From a virus: a stretch of 64,000 bases of DNA. Under the pieces are notes generated by a model, which worked only from the letters and a program-made list of their open reading frames with translations, was not told the DNA's origin and ran no database searches. Each line of letters starts with the position of its first letter. The first letter of the stretch is position 1. Positions 1,576 to 12,158 of the stretch are shown here, in pieces. The position numbers and the translations under genes were made by a program. The stretch spans positions 29,641 to 93,640 of the IMG/VR virus record IMGVR_UViG_2922401287_000005; one strand, 5' to 3'.

Positions 1576-1658
1576 TGGTAGCTCCAGTGGTGGGGGTGCA
1601 AAGGCGAGAGAGGCAGAGGCGCGCGTACGCGCCCCTGCCGACGCTGCGAGAGCGTCAA

Positions 1659-3260
1659 TTAGCCGTTGGCGATGTTCGAGATCATCGCGAAGGCGGGCGG
1701 GAAGTAGCACTGCAGCACTTCGTCGGCGTAGACGCCCGACTCGTACTTGCGGGTCCGCAGCGGCCACTCGATCTGGTAGTAGTCCTGACGGCAGCGGACC
1801 TGCAGGACGTTGGCGATACCCGAGACCGGGTACGGCAGCGACTTCGACGTCATCACGATCGTGCCCGCGGGCATGTTCGGATGGATGCGGATGTCGAGGG
1901 TCTTGGCGCCGCCCATGCTGAAACGGTTCAGATAGGTGCGGACCATGATGCCGCCGCCGAGGCTGTCGCGCTCGGAGTTGAACACGAACCGCTGGGCCGC
2001 GTTGGACGAGCCCTGCAGGATCTTCTTGGAGATGTTCAACGCCTCCTGCGAGTTCACCCAGATGGTGTCGGGCGACAGGCGGAAGTTGTCCCAGCGATCC
2101 TTCAGCGCGGCGTCGATCTCGACGATGCCGCCGGAGCCGTCCGAGGTCAGCGGCGTACCGACGCCGGCAGCGCCGGTGGCGAGACGGCCGACATAGGCAT
2201 TCGACCCGGCCTTGAGCAGCTGGGTCATGATGCCGTCGAACACGAGGCTGTTGGTCGACTGGTCGCTCGACGGCAGCGAGGCTGCGGTCTGCGTGCCGGT
2301 CGCGGCCGCCACGATGGCAACCGAATTGATCGAGGTGATCGCACCGAGCACCTCGGAGCCAGCCGCGCCCCAGAACCAAGCGTAGCCGCAGGCGCCGTTG
2401 ACCGCCGCAACGGTCGCCGTCAGCGAGCCGGTGGTGCCGCTCGCGACGGTGCCGGTGGCAGCCACCGACTTCTGCGCGGAGCCGCCGCCGAACGTGTCGG
2501 ACGAACCGTCAGCGTTGGCGCGGGTGATCGAGGCCTGGATACCGCCGGCGATCGAGCCGTTGACCATGGCATCGAACGCGAGCGCGACGCAGATCACCGA
2601 GTAGGTCGCGGCAGCCAGAACGCCGCCGGTGATCGAGGCCGCGACCGTCGGGGTCGGGGTGATGCCGAGCTGCAGCGAGGTGTTGCCACCGAGCAGCAGC
2701 GCCTCTTCGCCGATCATGGTGGCCTCGAGGCCGACCTTGGCCGCGATCGCCCGGATGTCGTCGAAGCCGCGGCCAGCGTACTCGGCCTCGAAGTCGACGT
2801 TGGTTTCCAGACCGATGCCGCGGTAAGCCGCCGCGTAGTCCTGCGTGGAGACCGCCTGCACGCCGCCGCGGTTACCGGCCGAGACGCCGATCCGCATGTT
2901 GGCGGTGTTCACGCCGGTGACCGCACGCCAAGCGGCCTGAATGCCGCCCTTGCCGGTCACGCGCGGAATTTCGTTCCGCAGCGGGGTGAGAACCGGGTAC
3001 ACGAACTTCGCGCCCAGCTCGAGGTCGTAGTAGGTCAGGCCCGTGGTGGGCGAGCCGGCCTGCTGGAACGTCGCCGACTTGGCGAACATCTCCGGGACGA
3101 AGTTGCGCGCCTCGTGCGACTTCGACATCGACGCGAGGAAGGACTGCACTTCGGCGGCGATCGCAGCGCGATCGAGGTTGCCGTTGACGGTGTAGATCGG
3201 CGCCCACGACTTCTGCAGCTCGTGCGGCAGGAAGTCGGTATACTTGACGAGAGCGTTCAT
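1659..3260 (-). CDS. Major capsid protein (HK97-like) with an internal Ala/Thr/Gly-rich insertion
   Basis: 533 aa, GGAG RBS, follows the protease/scaffold gene; N-terminal YDLE..AK..YPVLTPLRN and C-terminal EVLQCYFPPAFAMISNI resemble capsid proteins. Confidence 0.8.
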   Translation of the reverse strand: MNALVKYTDFLPHELQKSWAPIYTVNGNLDRAAIAAEVQSFLASMSKSHEARNFVPEMFAKSATFQQAGSPTTGLTYYDLELGAKFVYPVLTPLRNEIPRVTGKGGIQAAWRAVTGVNTANMRIGVSAGNRGGVQAVSTQDYAAAYRGIGLETNVDFEAEYAGRGFDDIRAIAAKVGLEATMIGEEALLLGGNTSLQLGITPTPTVAASITGGVLAAATYSVICVALAFDAMVNGSIAGGIQASITRANADGSSDTFGGGSAQKSVAATGTVASGTTGSLTATVAAVNGACGYAWFWGAAGSEVLGAITSINSVAIVAAATGTQTAASLPSSDQSTNSLVFDGIMTQLLKAGSNAYVGRLATGAAGVGTPLTSDGSGGIVEIDAALKDRWDNFRLSPDTIWVNSQEALNISKKILQGSSNAAQRFVFNSERDSLGGGIMVRTYLNRFSMGGAKTLDIRIHPNMPAGTIVMTSKSLPYPVSGIANVLQVRCRQDYYQIEWPLRTRKYESGVYADEVLQCYFPPAFAMISNIANG

Positions 3261-3302
3261 CGCTCAAGACTCCAAAACTGGTGATTGCGGGGTGTGGTGG
3301 GT

Positions 3303-3428
3303 GCGCCGTGGTGCCGTCCCCGGCAGGCGCGAGCAGACGCGCGACGTCGTTCCCGCAGTGACCGTCCCCGGCCCGGGTTCTCGTCGCGATGAAGGCTGCG
3401 GCGCCCTACCCGTCCCCGGGTGGGCGCC
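3303..3428 (-). promoter_or_regulatory. Three CCG-GGGA-CGG stem-loops in the capsid 5' leader
   Basis: CCGTCCCCGG (+ strand) at 3314, 3362 and 3410; the flanking stems differ in sequence but each pairs. Confidence 0.7.
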
Positions 3429-3449
3429 TAGCCGAATTTCAGGAAGTGA

Positions 3450-6413
3450 TCAGACCTGGCCGCGCGTCGGCATCTGCCGACGCATGGACGCCTCGGTGGC
3501 TCGGGTGTTGAGCTCCTCGGACGTGATCTTCGCCAGATCACTGGTCACCATGTCGATGGCCTTCTCCGCGACGCGGTAGGGACCGTTCGGCACGGCGGCC
3601 GGATAGAGCGAGACCTCGGCGACACGCTTGGTGAGGTCGCCGTTCTGGGTGGTCAGGGTCGCGATCTCCTCGCGGAGCGGGCCCGTGGCCTTGGCGACCT
3701 CGTCGCTGATCTTCAGCGCGATGCCGGCCTCGATGTCCTTGAACAGCTGGGCCTGCGCGGCCGAAGCGGCAGCGACCTGCGCCTTGAGCAGATCGTTCGC
3801 CTCGATCGCCTTGCCGAGATCGTCGCCGGCGGCCTTCTCCGCAGCACCGCAGCAGCCCTTGTCGAGCTTGACCATGGTGTCGTGGATCTCCTTGATCGCG
3901 GCGCGATCCTTGGCGCTGTGCCGCGCGCCGCGCTTGAGGAGATCGGCCAGCGGAGCTGCGCGCGTCAGCGCCTCGCTCTGCTCTTCGGCCTTGATGTGGG
4001 TCAGCACGGTGTCGAGCACGGCGGCGACGATGTCGCCGAGGTCGACCAGCGCGGTACCGAAGCGGTCGCGCAGCTCCTTCGGCACCTCGATGCCCCACTC
4101 GCCCTCGGTCATGTTCTCGCACGCCTGAACGCACGCGAGCATGTTGGTGAGGTCGCCCATCATGTAGAGGCCGGCGCCCTTGGCGAGCTCGTCGCCCTCG
4201 ATCGCCTCGCCCTTGAACACGAGTCCCTCGGGCAGCTTGTCGACGAGCGACAGCGCACGGGCGGCCTTGACCAGCTCGCGGGTCTCCACGTGGGAGGCGT
4301 TCAATGCGTCGAACAGCGTGATCGCCTTCTCGACGCCCTCGGCGGTGGTGAGGTCAGCCTTCTCGACGGTCGCGGTCTCGCCTTCGGGCTTCGCATCGCC
4401 CTCGGCACCCTTGGCGACCTCGGCGGGCTTTTCGCCGGTCTTGAGCGCATCGAGCACGGGAGCGGCCGCCTTGGCGACCGCGTCCTTGGCTTCGAGCTCG
4501 GCGAGCGCCTTCAGCAGATCGCCCTTCTTGGCGAAGGTCTGGTTCGGCAGGCGCGGCGACGCCCAGACCTGGGCGACGTCGTCGGGAGTGGTCTTGGTCA
4601 AATCGACGCCCTCGGTTGCGGTGTTTTCGATCGTGCCGCCGGCTTCGACGGTGGCGGTGGCGCCCTTGGCGACCTCGGCAGCGGCCGCCTCAGCGGCGAC
4701 CGGCTCAGCAGCGGGCTGCTCAACGGGAGCGGCCTTCTTGGCGGCGGCCTCGTCCTCGAGCGCCTTGCGGGCGTCGGCGATGTGCACCAGCCAGTCGCCA
4801 CCCTTCTCGGTCGCGATCTCGGTGGCGCGCTTGGCGACCATGTCGTTGGTGATGACGATCTCCTCGGTGGTCTCCGGCTTGGAGGCCTCGCCGCCGGCGA
4901 ACTTGCGCATCTCCTCGGTGCCGTCCGCCTTGATCATGGAGAACGTGGCGGAGGGGCCGCACGGCAGGTCGACCAGCGAAATCTCGGAGGGCGCGGCGGT
5001 GTAGCGCTTTGCGTCACCGTCCTGCCAGCGCTTCAGATAGCGGCCGCCGATGGAGAAGCCGGTGTAGACGCCCTCCTCGACCTTCTTCCACTCATTGTCG
5101 TCGACGACCTTGGCGGCGATGTCGATCGCCTTGCGCGCATCGTCGAAGCCGATGTCGGTCAGCTTGCCGGCCGCGATCGCCGAGTGCATCGAGCGCACGT
5201 TGCCGAAACTCTTGCCGTCGGTCACCTTCGCGATGTCGCCCGACCACCTCTCGAAGTGCGGCTTCGAGGTCGCGTAGTCGAAGATCTCGTTGGCGCGATC
5301 GACTTCCTCGACCACTGCGGTGCCGTAAACGATGCGCTTGGCGGCATCGACCTTCGCGATTTGCACGAAGAGCGAAAGATTATCCATGTCCAGTTCTCCT
5401 GCGTCGCGTTTTTCGACGACGGTTGACATCCAGTTTTCTTTGATCTCGGCCCACTGCTCGGGTCCGAACTCAAGCACGCCGTCGAACGGCGCCATCTCGT
5501 CGATGACGATGTCCGCTCCCTGATAGGTGAGCGTGACGTGCGATTTGAAGTCAGGCCACCGCCAGACGGCGCCTGCGTCGTGGATCTCGCGATGACGCGA
5601 GGCGAGCTCGTCGGAGTGGAAGCGAAGCACGAGGGCTTCACCTTCCTTGCCGAGGCGCTCGAGGTGACGCTCACCGCCTTCGACCCGGAAGATCGGCACG
5701 CTGGAGCGCGGCACGCCGGACCATTCGACCGGCTCTTTCGAGTAGGCGATGGTGACGTGGAAATCGTCGATGGGCAGCGTGACCGGGAAGCCGTTGGCTG
5801 CGGCCCAGCTCTTGAGTGCCTCGCCGTTGCGAAGGCTGCGCTTGATGTAGAGCGTGCGCTTGTCGCCCTTGGCGAAGCGCATCGGGCCGCCCTCGACGAC
5901 GGAAATGACGAGCGGCAGCGAAGCGCGGACGCCAGGATGCAGCGGCTCGGGCGGCGCGCGCAGATATTCCCAGCGCGCCTCGGTGTGCTCGTCGTTCAGC
6001 TTGACGGCGAGCTTCTCCTCGACGCGCTGAACGAAGGTGGTGAAGTCGACCCGGCCGGTTGCGATCTGGCAGACCTGGCCGCGGATACCCGCAGGGTCGA
6101 GCGTGATGCCGGCCTCTTCGAGCGTCTCGCGGATCGCGGCCTCTTCGGCCGTCTCGCCCGCGTCGATGCCCCCACCCGGGAAATTCCACTCGCCGCCGTG
6201 GTCCCCGCCCGGAGCCCGCTTCATGAACAGCGCGCGCCCATCCGGGGTCACGATGGCGATGCCGGCCGCCTGATGGCGGCCTGCGTCCGGATCGACGGCC
6301 GCCTTGGTGGCGTCCTTCTTCTTTTTCTTCTTCTGGCCCTCGAGGTCGTAGCCCTGAAGGCCGGACGTTGCCGACGCCGGCGCGGCGAAGGTCGATTTCT
6401 CCGCCGCGGTCAT
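3450..6413 (-). CDS. Fusion protein: Nudix hydrolase + Acb1-like 2H phosphoesterase + prohead protease + scaffold
   Basis: Likely start 6413 (GGAG RBS); Nudix box GGIDAGETAEEAAIRETLEEAG; HVTIAYS and HVTLTY motifs; protease-like AKVD...RIVYG...NVRSMH...EISLVD; Ala/Glu/Lys-rich C-terminus. Confidence 0.85.
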   Translation of the reverse strand: MTAAEKSTFAAPASATSGLQGYDLEGQKKKKKKDATKAAVDPDAGRHQAAGIAIVTPDGRALFMKRAPGGDHGGEWNFPGGGIDAGETAEEAAIRETLEEAGITLDPAGIRGQVCQIATGRVDFTTFVQRVEEKLAVKLNDEHTEARWEYLRAPPEPLHPGVRASLPLVISVVEGGPMRFAKGDKRTLYIKRSLRNGEALKSWAAANGFPVTLPIDDFHVTIAYSKEPVEWSGVPRSSVPIFRVEGGERHLERLGKEGEALVLRFHSDELASRHREIHDAGAVWRWPDFKSHVTLTYQGADIVIDEMAPFDGVLEFGPEQWAEIKENWMSTVVEKRDAGELDMDNLSLFVQIAKVDAAKRIVYGTAVVEEVDRANEIFDYATSKPHFERWSGDIAKVTDGKSFGNVRSMHSAIAAGKLTDIGFDDARKAIDIAAKVVDDNEWKKVEEGVYTGFSIGGRYLKRWQDGDAKRYTAAPSEISLVDLPCGPSATFSMIKADGTEEMRKFAGGEASKPETTEEIVITNDMVAKRATEIATEKGGDWLVHIADARKALEDEAAAKKAAPVEQPAAEPVAAEAAAAEVAKGATATVEAGGTIENTATEGVDLTKTTPDDVAQVWASPRLPNQTFAKKGDLLKALAELEAKDAVAKAAAPVLDALKTGEKPAEVAKGAEGDAKPEGETATVEKADLTTAEGVEKAITLFDALNASHVETRELVKAARALSLVDKLPEGLVFKGEAIEGDELAKGAGLYMMGDLTNMLACVQACENMTEGEWGIEVPKELRDRFGTALVDLGDIVAAVLDTVLTHIKAEEQSEALTRAAPLADLLKRGARHSAKDRAAIKEIHDTMVKLDKGCCGAAEKAAGDDLGKAIEANDLLKAQVAAASAAQAQLFKDIEAGIALKISDEVAKATGPLREEIATLTTQNGDLTKRVAEVSLYPAAVPNGPYRVAEKAIDMVTSDLAKITSEELNTRATEASMRRQMPTRGQV

Positions 6414-8747: not shown

Positions 8748-10432
8748 CACTTGTCCTTCTTGGTCGGCGGCTTGGAGCCGTCGACCTTGGTTGAGGGGGT
8801 CTTTGTGGAGGGGGTTTTGGTGGAGCCCGGCTCGGGCGCCGTGGGCTGCGGGACGGCTTGCGCCATCGCCTTCGCCTCGGCCACCTTGTTGTCGAGCAGG
8901 TTGGCGTCGATCGGCACAAGGCCGCTCGGCGTCATGACCATCAGCATGTTGGCGGCCGGGCTCGGGTCCGGCTCTTCGCCGATCCGGTCGCGCACCTGAT
9001 TGATGGTCAGGTTGCCGCTCTCTTGGTAGCCGCGCAGGATGGTCGACTGCTTCTCCGGGTCGATCTCCTGCTCTTCCGCCCACGCGAACTCGAGCTCGTC
9101 GTCGGAGAACTCGCGCATCAGCACGTCGTTGAGGGTCTCGGCGACCCACTGCTTCATGGGCTCGATGCCCTCCTCCTCGGCCTGCTTCTCGTGCTGCTCG
9201 GCGATCGAGCGGTTCGAGAGCGAGACGAAGGCGGCCGGCGGATAGGAGAACGCGAAGCAGACGATGCGGACCAGCCACTCGTCGAACTCGTTCTTGAGCG
9301 GCGGCTCCTTGAGCGGCGTGTAGGCGTTGCCGGAGCCGGTCGGGATGAACTTCATCCGGCGACGGTTGGCGAGGTTGCCCGAGAACAGATCGTCCCAATA
9401 CTGCTGGAAGCGCTGGGTCTGGTCCGGCGTCCACTCGGCGGGCAGCGAATACACCGCGTCCGGCTGGTTGCCTTCGCGGAAGTATTCGAGCTGCGCCAGC
9501 GAGCGGTGCAGCGCGATCGAGATGGTCATCACGACCTGCTCGACCGGCGAATAGCCATAGACCCGGTTGGGGCGCAGATTGAGCGGCCGATAGATCAGGT
9601 CCGCCGTGGTGTAGTTCACTGCCGGGAGACCTTTCAGCACCTGCTGGTAGGCCGGAGGCAGCATCGCGAACTTCGGCGGCTTCATGCCGATCGGCGTCTG
9701 ATGCGCGATCATGGAGCCGGGCACCAGCCGGAAACCGAAGGTTCGGTGGTTCTCCAGCGTGATGGTGTCGCCGTTCCACGTGAAGTCCTGCCCGGTGAAC
9801 GGGATGGGCTCCGGGGTGCGGCCCCAATCGTCGATCACCCGCTTGATGGTGCCGCCGTCGACGTAGCGCAGGCCGATCAGCCCGCCGCCACGGTTGCGCT
9901 CGCAGAAGATCGACGGGGCGTCGATCACGAGCAGATCCTCGAGGATCGCGCGCAGCCAGGATCGGAAGGTCATCTCCCGGTCGGGCCGCTTGAAGAAGCG
10001 CGTGATCTCCTTGATGCGGTTCTGCTGAGCCGCAGGCAGCTCGGAGATCGCCGGCCGCTTCTTCTTGCTGGTGTCCTCGTGCTTGACGCGGATGGTCCAC
10101 GGCAGGCGGCACATCTGATCCTTGCGCCGCTCGATGACGAGCCGCATCGGATCGTAGCTGTCGGCGAGGTTGCGCAGCGCCGGGAACGAGATTTCCTCGT
10201 AGGTGCGCGGCGTGGTGGCGAGGTTGTAGCCCGGGATGAAATCCCAGACGCGGCCTGCGACCTCGGGCGGGGCAATCGGCTGGATCGGGTTGAGAGGTCC
10301 GAACCAGTCGGCGCCCTGCGCGGTGCCGTAGCCCGCGCCCGGCGTGACCGGGCGCCCCTGCGACGACACGCTGACGTCGTAGGGAGAGAGCGACCGCATC
10401 GAGCGGCCTTCTCCGCGAGGGGTGGACACCAT
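8747..10432 (-). CDS. Phage portal protein
   Basis: 561 aa directly after terminase; WLRAILEDLLVIDA, YGYSPVEQ and DEWLVRIVCFAF are portal-like motifs. Confidence 0.88.
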   Translation of the reverse strand: MVSTPRGEGRSMRSLSPYDVSVSSQGRPVTPGAGYGTAQGADWFGPLNPIQPIAPPEVAGRVWDFIPGYNLATTPRTYEEISFPALRNLADSYDPMRLVIERRKDQMCRLPWTIRVKHEDTSKKKRPAISELPAAQQNRIKEITRFFKRPDREMTFRSWLRAILEDLLVIDAPSIFCERNRGGGLIGLRYVDGGTIKRVIDDWGRTPEPIPFTGQDFTWNGDTITLENHRTFGFRLVPGSMIAHQTPIGMKPPKFAMLPPAYQQVLKGLPAVNYTTADLIYRPLNLRPNRVYGYSPVEQVVMTISIALHRSLAQLEYFREGNQPDAVYSLPAEWTPDQTQRFQQYWDDLFSGNLANRRRMKFIPTGSGNAYTPLKEPPLKNEFDEWLVRIVCFAFSYPPAAFVSLSNRSIAEQHEKQAEEEGIEPMKQWVAETLNDVLMREFSDDELEFAWAEEQEIDPEKQSTILRGYQESGNLTINQVRDRIGEEPDPSPAANMLMVMTPSGLVPIDANLLDNKVAEAKAMAQAVPQPTAPEPGSTKTPSTKTPSTKVDGSKPPTKKDK

Positions 10433-10448: not shown

Positions 10449-12158
10449 TTACGTTGTGGGCCCCGCTTGAGGCGTTGGCGCGGGCAGCGGGACGCGCTCC
10501 CAGCCCCGTTGCATGAAGGCTGAGGCGTCGTCCTTGCTGACGGCGATGATGCGGTTGGCCGGCGGGTATGCTGCCGTGCCGTCCATCAGGTAGACGGTCG
10601 AGACGTCGTCCGGCACGCGGATCAGCACCTTGTCGCGCGGAGGCGTGGCCGGTGTGATCTCGAAGCCGAACTGGGGACCTTCCGGAGGCGGGGCGCTTGC
10701 GGCCCCGCTGTGCTGCTGCGCGCCCTCGGCGAGCCGCTTGTAATACTCGATCCAGCTGTTGGCGCCGGAAGCGAGAGCCAGGTCGTTCACCGCCCAGATC
10801 CATGCGTCGGCCCGGTCGGGAGACTTGGGCCCCGTGTAGCCGAGCGTGGTGAAGGCGGTGAGCTGGTCCTCCAGCTCGTTGAAGCGTCCGACGTGGCGCA
10901 CCCCGTTGCGGGTATACAGCGTGGAGATCGGCTCGGCGCGGACGTGCTTGCCCTTGCCTGCATGGACCACGCGCACCGGGACGGCGCCGTCCAGCGAGCG
11001 GATGACGTAGGCGACCATGTCGCCGCCGTAGTTGATCTCGGCGATGATGTGGTCGGCACCGTAGGCGTGGTAGGCGGCGATTGCCGCCTTGCCCCAGTTC
11101 TCGGGACCGCCGACGATCGACAGGTCGGCGCGCAGATAGACGCGGTTGTCCTTGCCAAGCGAGGCGACAACGATGCCGATCTCGTCGTTCTTCGGCTTCT
11201 GCTCGACGTCGGTCTTGTCGCCGGGCTCGGATGCGCCGGACGGGTCGATCGAGACCACGGTCTGCACATATTCCGGCTCGTCGCCGACGGCGACGCGGCA
11301 GCTCTCGATCAGCTCGGTGGTCCAGAGCGCACCGGCGTTCTCGTCGATGTAGGAGCCTTCCCAGAACCGCTTGCGATAGTTGCCGGTCGAGTTTTCGAGC
11401 TCCTTGATGTAGCCAGCGTCAAGGTTCGCCATGTTGTCAGCGGGATTGATGAACATCCGCTGGTAGTTCTCGGGGTCGTTGATCGCGACCTTGGTCTCGG
11501 GGTCCTTGAGGTCGCCGAACAGGACGTTGGTCCAGTGCGACTTGCCGACCGGGTTGATGTCGTAGAACATCCGCTGCCGGCAGCCGTCGACGACCTGGGC
11601 GAGACGCGAGCGGACCAGCTTGGCGGTGTACCAGCTGATCTGCGAGCACTCGTTGAGGAAGATGGTGCAGTATTCGGCACCGAGGATCTTGTCGGCGCGC
11701 GACGCATCGTCGAGGCCGCCGATCCAGATTTCCGACCCGTTCGGGAAGCGCACCACGTTGTGCGGGTGGCGCGAGTGCTTGTACTTGGTCCCTGGGAAGA
11801 AGAGCTTCATCACCTTCGGCAGGGTGTCGAGACCCACCGAGGCGTCGGCATGGACCGCGCGGTTACGCAAGATCACATGGCGGGAGCCCGGGAAGCGGAG
11901 CGCGCGCAGCACGATGGTGCGGACGAGCGTCGTGGTCTTACCGGAGCGGGCGCCGCCGACCAGACAGGTGTGGCGCTGATCGCCACCGAGCAGGATGGTG
12001 GCCTTCTCCTGCGCCGGCGTCGCGCCCTTCTCGCCCCATGACGAGAGCGGCGGGCCGCCGTTGTGCCCGATCTTCGTCGCGCCCTTCTCGCCGACAACGA
12101 CGAACAAGGGGCCCCGGCTGGAGGCCTTTTTCTGCCGCTTGCCCTTAGAGCTTGGCAT
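10449..12158 (-). CDS. terL: Terminase large subunit with C-terminal extension
   Basis: Walker A GGARSGKT; nuclease motifs VSIDPSG, DEIGIVV and SPDRADA. Confidence 0.92.
   Translation of the reverse strand: MPSSKGKRQKKASSRGPLFVVVGEKGATKIGHNGGPPLSSWGEKGATPAQEKATILLGGDQRHTCLVGGARSGKTTTLVRTIVLRALRFPGSRHVILRNRAVHADASVGLDTLPKVMKLFFPGTKYKHSRHPHNVVRFPNGSEIWIGGLDDASRADKILGAEYCTIFLNECSQISWYTAKLVRSRLAQVVDGCRQRMFYDINPVGKSHWTNVLFGDLKDPETKVAINDPENYQRMFINPADNMANLDAGYIKELENSTGNYRKRFWEGSYIDENAGALWTTELIESCRVAVGDEPEYVQTVVSIDPSGASEPGDKTDVEQKPKNDEIGIVVASLGKDNRVYLRADLSIVGGPENWGKAAIAAYHAYGADHIIAEINYGGDMVAYVIRSLDGAVPVRVVHAGKGKHVRAEPISTLYTRNGVRHVGRFNELEDQLTAFTTLGYTGPKSPDRADAWIWAVNDLALASGANSWIEYYKRLAEGAQQHSGAASAPPPEGPQFGFEITPATPPRDKVLIRVPDDVSTVYLMDGTAAYPPANRIIAVSKDDASAFMQRGWERVPLPAPTPQAGPTT

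Follow-up and report, generated by a model that had tools for sequence, protein, structure and literature searches.

We found that the leader of the major capsid protein gene in an IMG/VR provirus carries three copies of a small hairpin with the conserved core CCG-GRRA-CGG, and we are confident that this element is a real and new motif at the level of RNA. The provirus record is 105,413 bp long, and the window, that is the whole stretch of DNA analysed here, is 64 kb of it. The three copies in the window fit what we define in this analysis as the capsid-leader GRRA hairpin family: a sense-strand CCG-GRRA-CGG core with a paired lower stem of variable sequence, found in the leader of a phrog_13692-type capsid gene. 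Our tentative reading, drawn from sequence comparison, is that the hairpins may be recognition sites read by free scaffold through a mini-domain of the scaffold protein, which would couple the output of capsid mRNA to scaffold.

The head module lies on the minus strand and comprises genes for the large terminase (10452-12158), the portal (8750-10432), an esterase and a protease-scaffold fusion, then a gap of 189 nt and the capsid gene. The fusion gene (P0001, 3450-6413, 987 aa, probably starting at M27) joins NUDIX, Acb1-like, XkdF-type prohead protease and scaffold parts, and its N-terminal NUDIX (PF00293, 1.6e-18) and Acb1-like (PF23474, 2.7e-33) domains lie in a single frame; relatives of 520-810 aa mostly lack these two domains. 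The capsid gene (P0002, 1659-3260, minus strand) encodes 533 aa, and we assign it as the major capsid protein because it matches phrog_13692 at 2e-138 and is approximately 30% identical to annotated major capsid proteins of Arthrobacter phages; its identity to proteins of Brevundimonas phages is 65%. Between the scaffold TGA (3452-3450) and the capsid ATG (3260) lies the non-coding capsid leader (3261-3449, minus strand).

A sequence scan found CCGGGGACGG on the minus (mRNA) strand at 3314-3323, 3362-3371 and 3410-3419, with start-to-start distances of 48 and 48 nt, in agreement with the original prediction. That prediction had also placed the array between the scaffold stop and the capsid ribosome site, as is the case: 3' of the third hairpin the leader continues as a C/A-rich, G-poor tract and reaches the ribosome site GGAG at 3273-3270. 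No further copy of CCGGGGACGG was found in the 105,413-bp record, and the reversed control gave none. Shuffles of the window contained 0.5 copies per 64 kb, with three copies in 1 of 100 shuffles, scattered and not clustered. As five host genomes contain approximately 3 copies per Mb, three copies in a gap of 189 nt are far beyond chance.

Each copy forms the tip of a hairpin on the minus strand. Hairpin 1, the first in the mRNA (3400-3428, core CCG-GGGA-CGG at 3410-3419), has a 12-bp stem with one bulge and a folding energy of -27.5 kcal/mol; hairpin 2 (3352-3377, core 3362-3371) has a lower stem broken by an internal loop; and hairpin 3 (3303-3330, core 3314-3323) has the lower stem GCGCC/GGCGC. 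Their scores with our covariance model R1 were 23.1, 23.2 and 22.9 bits respectively, the next best site in the window reaching 16 bits. All three hairpins were retained in the minimum-energy fold of the leader (z = -2.6), and the differing outer stems do remain paired as had been predicted. The array is not a 48-nt tandem repeat: TRF reported none and the units are alike in the core alone. In the same fold, positions 3386-3397, between hairpins 1 and 2, pair with the capsid start-codon region (3252-3263, complementary at 11 of 12 positions); this pairing was not conserved in three closest relatives (L004, L084 and L085) and was taken as chance.

Other features of the window flank the array. 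A GAAATTC box (3434-3440, minus strand) lies approximately 6 nt before hairpin 1 and is kept as ACGAAATTC in the three closest relatives. It was considered as a promoter and rejected, since no sigma-70-like site was found and no enrichment of the box was seen in the rest of the window. Conserved single-stranded boxes preceding hairpin 1, seen in the window and in L168, L183, L221 and related leaders, are clade-specific, being ACGAAATTC in the clade of the window and AGCAACGAGGC in a Brevundimonas-like clade; a tandem G·A internal loop is likewise conserved in hairpin 1 of the latter. Beyond the capsid gene, a 12-bp hairpin with a UACG loop (1612-1639, minus strand) lies 19 nt past the stop codon; next come a C-rich leader and a GGAG belonging to the following gene (MPKLFAPEGV..., with its start near 1574). 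Post-capsid hairpins with a UACG or UUCG loop and freely variable sequence were also found in L220, L084 and L085. With the leader hairpins on one side and this hairpin on the other, the capsid cistron is bracketed by structure.

We collected relatives of the capsid from viral contigs and bacterial genomes. The bacterial hosts were mostly Hyphomicrobiales (Bradyrhizobium, Xanthobacteraceae, Beijerinckiaceae and Methylobacterium), plus one Rhodocyclaceae genome. The relatives include the cultured Brevundimonas phages Polewnik and Strzyga, whose host is B. pondensis LVF1 (PMC10070969). In a substantial minority of relatives CCGGGGACGG, CCGGAGACGG or CCGGGAACGG lies between the upstream gene and the capsid start, in 1-3 copies per leader, each of them in sense orientation. 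The leaders of homologous capsid genes, at 39-85% capsid identity, yielded 87 distinct copies, in which 9 of the 10 core bases are invariant and the second loop base alone varies, being G or A; the loops are thus GGGA or GAGA, with a GGAA variant seen separately. The lower stem of the module varies, its CCG/CGG top is invariant and the loop is a GRRA tetraloop of the GNRA type.

Several lines of evidence show that the flanks of the core pair as RNA. Each of the four base pairs flanking the core has 15-31 double-sided changes, and the covariation score was 0.310 compared with 0.142 ± 0.014 in shuffles (0/500 as high) and 0.075-0.139 in slid controls. Swapping the 3' flanks between copies changed the mean energy from -16.9 to -11.6 ± 0.4 kcal/mol, a cost of 5.3, and none of 300 shuffles equalled the real pairing. 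For the two pairs adjoining the core we counted 38 G·U against 6 A·C combinations, which indicates that pairing acts on the sense strand, that is in RNA rather than in duplex DNA. Copies of CCGGYGACGG inside coding regions had no such flank pairing. Comparison of related leaders, which had been suggested as a check, therefore bore out a multi-copy RNA-level leader element by its covarying stems, sense-strand placement and G·U pairs, while the 48-nt spacing was not kept.

Loop types agree within leaders: we counted 27 GGGA/GGGA, 12 GAGA/GAGA and 1 mixed, with 8-9 switches of loop type on the tree. Independent pairs had the same loop type in 4/4 cases on supported branches and 8/8 on all branches; the conservative form of the test has too few pairs for significance. 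That loops match within a leader despite 8-9 switches suggests that all copies answer to one partner.

The spacing of 48/48 nt, although exact in the window, is not a property of the family. Other three-copy leaders have spacings of 44/40, 54/59, 39/38, 24/23, 58/39 and 95/39, two-copy leaders mostly have 28-40 nt, and the overall range in relatives is 23-96 nt. Near-equal spacing was observed in 5/7 three-copy leaders (48/48, 44/40, 54/59, 39/38 and 24/23), which hints at regular arrays or an origin by duplication, though the leaders are in part relatives of each other. The distance from the end of the last hairpin to the capsid ATG is 25-123 nt, with the G-poor, C/A-rich tract and the ribosome site in between, and simple occlusion of the ribosome site is unlikely given these distances. 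In the closest relatives (L004, 1827-2830; L084; L085) the array is set apart from the scaffold gene by one or two additional small genes, indicating that it travels with the capsid gene. In a more distant locus (L303, 8780-8880; capsid 37% identical) two CCGGAGACGG hairpins lie just past the capsid gene, where they form part of the head-tail connector gene's leader.

The motif is specific to this setting, the capsid leaders of an extensive group of alphaproteobacterial phages. Paired-motif scans of IMG/VR recovered capsid-family leaders and coding repeats and nothing else consistent, most of the other paired matches in viral contigs being coding repeats, collagen-like or rich in Gly, that are spaced by multiples of 3. 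The motif before HK97-like capsid genes in L181 and L202 was rejected as a coding coincidence (an A-G-D-G repeat; 48 vs 45 nt spacing). Scanning host genomes with the model gave scattered matches at chance level, a few of them at ordinary terminator tips, and no host regulon. On the capsid tree the motif occurs in every deep lineage, including an outlier at 39% identity, and is missing from three derived clades and one row; since only 4 changes are needed, we consider the motif ancestral to the capsid family, with 3-4 losses. No gene cluster within ±3 kb tracks the motif.

The original prediction knew of no named motif matching the array, and searches of Rfam 15 were likewise empty: the leader (2800-3900, E-value mode) had no match, and no family passed its gathering threshold across 12 related loci (97,944 bases). 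Two further classes can be set aside, as the 10-mer is not enriched in the manner of a host REP-type repeat (192 copies vs 157 in the reversed control, five host genomes) and no intrinsic terminator was found in the window between 2900 and 3800. The closest known systems each share some features with the motif. The boxB element of lambda N and nut sites is also a short G-C stem with a loop of GNRA fold, and is a sequence-specific RNA site encoded by the phage, located in untranslated sequence and acting on targets at varying distances. However, boxB has a five-base (GNRNA) loop, occurs once per early operon beside boxA and is read by an arginine-rich peptide, whereas the capsid-leader motif has a true GRRA tetraloop on a fixed CCG/CGG stem, in 1-3 copies, in a late leader. 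In addition, the upstream boxes ACGAAATTC and AGCAACGAGGC are not boxA-like, and no N homologue was found in 20 ORFs.

Guanidine-II (mini-ykkC, RF01068) resembles the array in having two tiny tandem hairpins with an invariant tetraloop, G-C closing pairs and a variable linker in a 5' leader, ahead of a ribosome site. It differs in that its ACGR loops pair mutually around the ligand, in strictly two copies before guanidine-handling genes, while GRRA loops cannot pair with each other and occur in 1-3 copies; the loops here are GGGA, GAGA or GGAA and there was no match to RF01068. The coat-protein operators of MS2 and PP7 are likewise small hairpins with a fixed loop and top stem and a variable lower stem, and they are read by a virion structural protein to tune translation. 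Those operators overlap the start of the regulated gene, contain a bulged A and belong to RNA genomes, unlike the capsid-leader hairpins, which occur in a DNA phage and stop 25-123 nt short of the start codon. Hairpins of the Rhodobacter puf operon and of the phage T7 gene 10 leader also flank a highly expressed cistron in a polycistronic message and set relative protein yields, but there it is structure alone that is conserved, in contrast to the 9 invariant core bases of our 87 copies.

A regulatory precedent is phage P22, whose scaffolding protein is autoregulated post-transcriptionally (Casjens and Adams 1985; Wyckoff and Casjens 1985). As in our proposal, unassembled scaffold feeds back on head-gene mRNA and so matches the amounts of scaffold and coat. 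In P22, however, scaffold feeds back on its own message, neither an RNA site nor an RNA-binding domain is defined and the scaffold sequence is unrelated, whereas our comparison of sequences puts forward a specific RNA motif together with a candidate domain of the protein.

A candidate partner emerged when nine phage or prophage regions that bear the motif were compared with eight that lack it (the latter 38-80 kb), which singled out the protease-scaffold protein. Its tail after the protease domain has a median of 459 aa in motif-bearing phages, compared with a median of 178 aa and never more than 240 in motif-less ones. Alignment of the scaffold from all motif-bearers revealed one common segment, V.QVW..DG.TF.KKADA.AH, which in the window is encoded at 4482-4586 on the minus strand (P0001 residues ~636-670, QVW at 641). 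An HMM of this mini-domain matched 43/43 motif-bearing loci and 0/119 motif-less loci, although this perfect two-by-two table overstates the weight of the association, as the two features lie 0.6-1.4 kb apart and the negatives represent only 3-4 evolutionary events. The HMM also matched 15/15 independent GAGA-type loci with enough upstream DNA (including L303) and 9/9 motif-bearing phage genomes, in the scaffold gene only, compared with 0/8 motif-less prophage regions. In a short-tailed clade (L047, L108 and L115) the other middle segments of the scaffold have been lost and the mini-domain and one hairpin have been kept.

The C-terminal 130 aa of the scaffold, which lie between the mini-domain and the leader and are retained by all, were used to build a tree. 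On this tree the motif label needs 4 changes, at least 3 of which are forced by supported branches. As the tree splits the motif-less clades, the hairpins and the mini-domain appear to have been lost together at least three separate times, and not as one recombinant block.

The mini-domain was predicted by AlphaFold to form a beta-hairpin plus a helix (pLDDT ~90) with invariant Q, W and K. Searches for significant Pfam, PDB-sequence or fold matches found none (best Foldseek E-value 8), and these sequence and fold searches found no known RNA-binding relative; in topology there is a weak likeness to C2H2 beta-beta-alpha units. An exhaustive profile search returned 264 clusters, mostly proteins of 450-1000 aa with the segment in mid-chain. 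Among three distant carriers with DNA available, two have CCGGAGACGG directly after the stop and one (L477) lacks the canonical motif. Surface proteins of Gram-positive bacteria (P0003, P0063, P0055 and P0067) with a signal peptide, SLH domains, an LPXTG anchor or choline-binding repeats likewise contain the core W.TSDGK.F....EA.AH, in 5-15 tandem repeats. These tandem copies at the cell surface indicate that the fold is not dedicated to RNA. The repeats look like an undescribed repeat family; P0067 is a borderline match to DUF2188 (PF09954; 23.2 bits vs a cut-off of 22) and the window segment has no Pfam match.

The mechanism which we favour would work as follows. The late capsid mRNA would carry the hairpins in its 5' leader as cis-acting RNA modules, each a sequence-specific recognition site for a partner acting in trans. 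The most likely partner would be the mini-domain mid-way in the prohead protease-scaffold protein, whose gene lies close by on the upstream side. Scaffold not yet assembled would occupy the 1-3 hairpins and alter the translation or stability of the capsid cistron, scaffold built into procapsids would be withdrawn from them, and the resulting feedback would keep capsid and scaffold balanced. We infer the binding of hairpins by scaffold, the direction of the effect and the role in stoichiometry from sequence comparison; the setting of capsid:scaffold stoichiometry, which the original prediction had proposed, may draw circumstantial support from the co-occurrence of hairpins and mini-domain and from their repeated joint loss. 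The broader claim, that the scaffold of a tailed phage could itself be an RNA-binding regulator whose mini-domain reads GNRA hairpins in hundreds of alphaproteobacterial phages, we regard as somewhat unlikely. Several observations weaken the reading of scaffold as the partner: L477 has the mini-domain and no canonical motif; no residue in the capsid, scaffold, portal, neighbouring proteins or mini-domain tracks the GGGA or GAGA loop type; extra genes lie between scaffold and hairpins in L004, L084 and L085; and the hairpins of L303 follow the capsid gene.

Four other explanations were weighed, in descending order of weight a passive stabiliser, antitermination or attenuation, a host factor and DNA-level sites. 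The hairpins might shield the capsid cistron from ribonucleases and keep the G-poor region of the ribosome site unpaired, as stabilisers or insulators with no dedicated partner. Nearest-neighbour energy tables list G(GGGA)C and G(GAGA)C with the tetraloop hexamers of special stability, and in the Rhodobacter puf operon intercistronic hairpins set the stability of mRNA segments. The bracketing of the capsid cistron, with a strong UACG- or UUCG-loop hairpin past the stop in the window and three relatives, and the flexible position and copy number of the leader hairpins would fit this explanation. Yet it leaves the nine invariant bases unexplained, in contrast to the 3' hairpin with its freely variable stem and loop; equally stable tips (GAAA, UUCG or other G-C stems) are not used; and it does not account for the matched loops within leaders or for the joint loss with the scaffold mini-domain. 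We consider it unlikely. Control of transcription is rather improbable in our judgement, whether by nut/boxB-like or LoaP-type antitermination sites or by attenuators gating read-through from scaffold to capsid. The GNRA-type loop on a short G-C stem recalls boxB, position-independent action suits the behaviour of nut sites, a U-run directly follows the motif hairpin in four leaders (L040, L042, L183 and L200) and separate terminator-like hairpins are present in the leaders of L076 and L248. Terminator-like features were, however, found in just 8/42 motif-bearing compared with 38/118 motif-less leaders, and the window has none at 2900-3800. The element lies mid-way in the head operon, away from any promoter, and has no boxA-like element. 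A Pfam survey of 20 nearby ORFs (7.6-24.5 kb), which was not exhaustive, found nothing RNA-related, no candidate N protein and no N-like or NusG-like protein.

A site for a host factor, with the loop showing GGA to a regulator of the CsrA/Rsm type or serving in recognition or processing by a host ribonuclease, appears improbable to a greater degree. GGGA, GAGA and GGAA loops hold GGA or near-GGA, the multi-hairpin layout is like that of CsrA targets with a GGAG downstream, and conservation of the motif in phages of different host orders is what a conserved host factor predicts. On the other hand, GAGA loops lack GGA itself, the provirus record has no CsrA gene (PF02599) and to our knowledge CsrA is generally absent from Alphaproteobacteria. 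The lack of enrichment of the 10-mer in the five host genomes and the scatter of the top model matches also argue against a host factor, and loss in three clades alongside a phage protein domain points to a phage-encoded partner. The suggestion in the original prediction of phased DNA sites, which could be bound by terminase, an activator or a replication protein or extruded as cruciforms, is very improbable. Direct 10-mer repeats at near-equal spacing in most three-copy leaders would suit such sites, but the core is not palindromic, the flanks covary as a one-strand hairpin with the excess of G·U over A·C, the orientation is always sense to the capsid gene and spacing varies widely among relatives. 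In some leaders merely 25 nt separate the last copy from the ATG, leaving no room for a promoter. A role in pairing with tRNA was also considered and rejected, the sole phage tRNA being Phe(GAA).

How matching output of capsid, scaffold and protease is obtained from a single late transcript is poorly understood in tailed phages, and the one classic case, P22 scaffold autoregulation, lacks a defined RNA site. Our analysis defines an uncatalogued, simple (24 nt) and deeply conserved RNA motif which is present in cultured phages, and names a 35-residue protein segment as its candidate reader. If recognition by scaffold is true, the two would form a defined molecular circuit for balancing head proteins, of the kind sought since the description of P22 autoregulation in 1985; should the link to the protein not hold, the motif remains a new entry for RNA-family catalogues and a capsid-leader marker for this phage group.

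A different structured element of approximately 110 nt was observed in the capsid leader of a motif-less Xanthobacteraceae clade (L007, at 2830-2960, with L012, L014, L019, L023 and L088). It consists of an outer stem, GTCATTCCGG/CCGGAATGAC, around a CCGGAATCCATAA/TTATGGATTCCGG hairpin and smaller hairpins, and could be either a replacement element or an inserted repeat.
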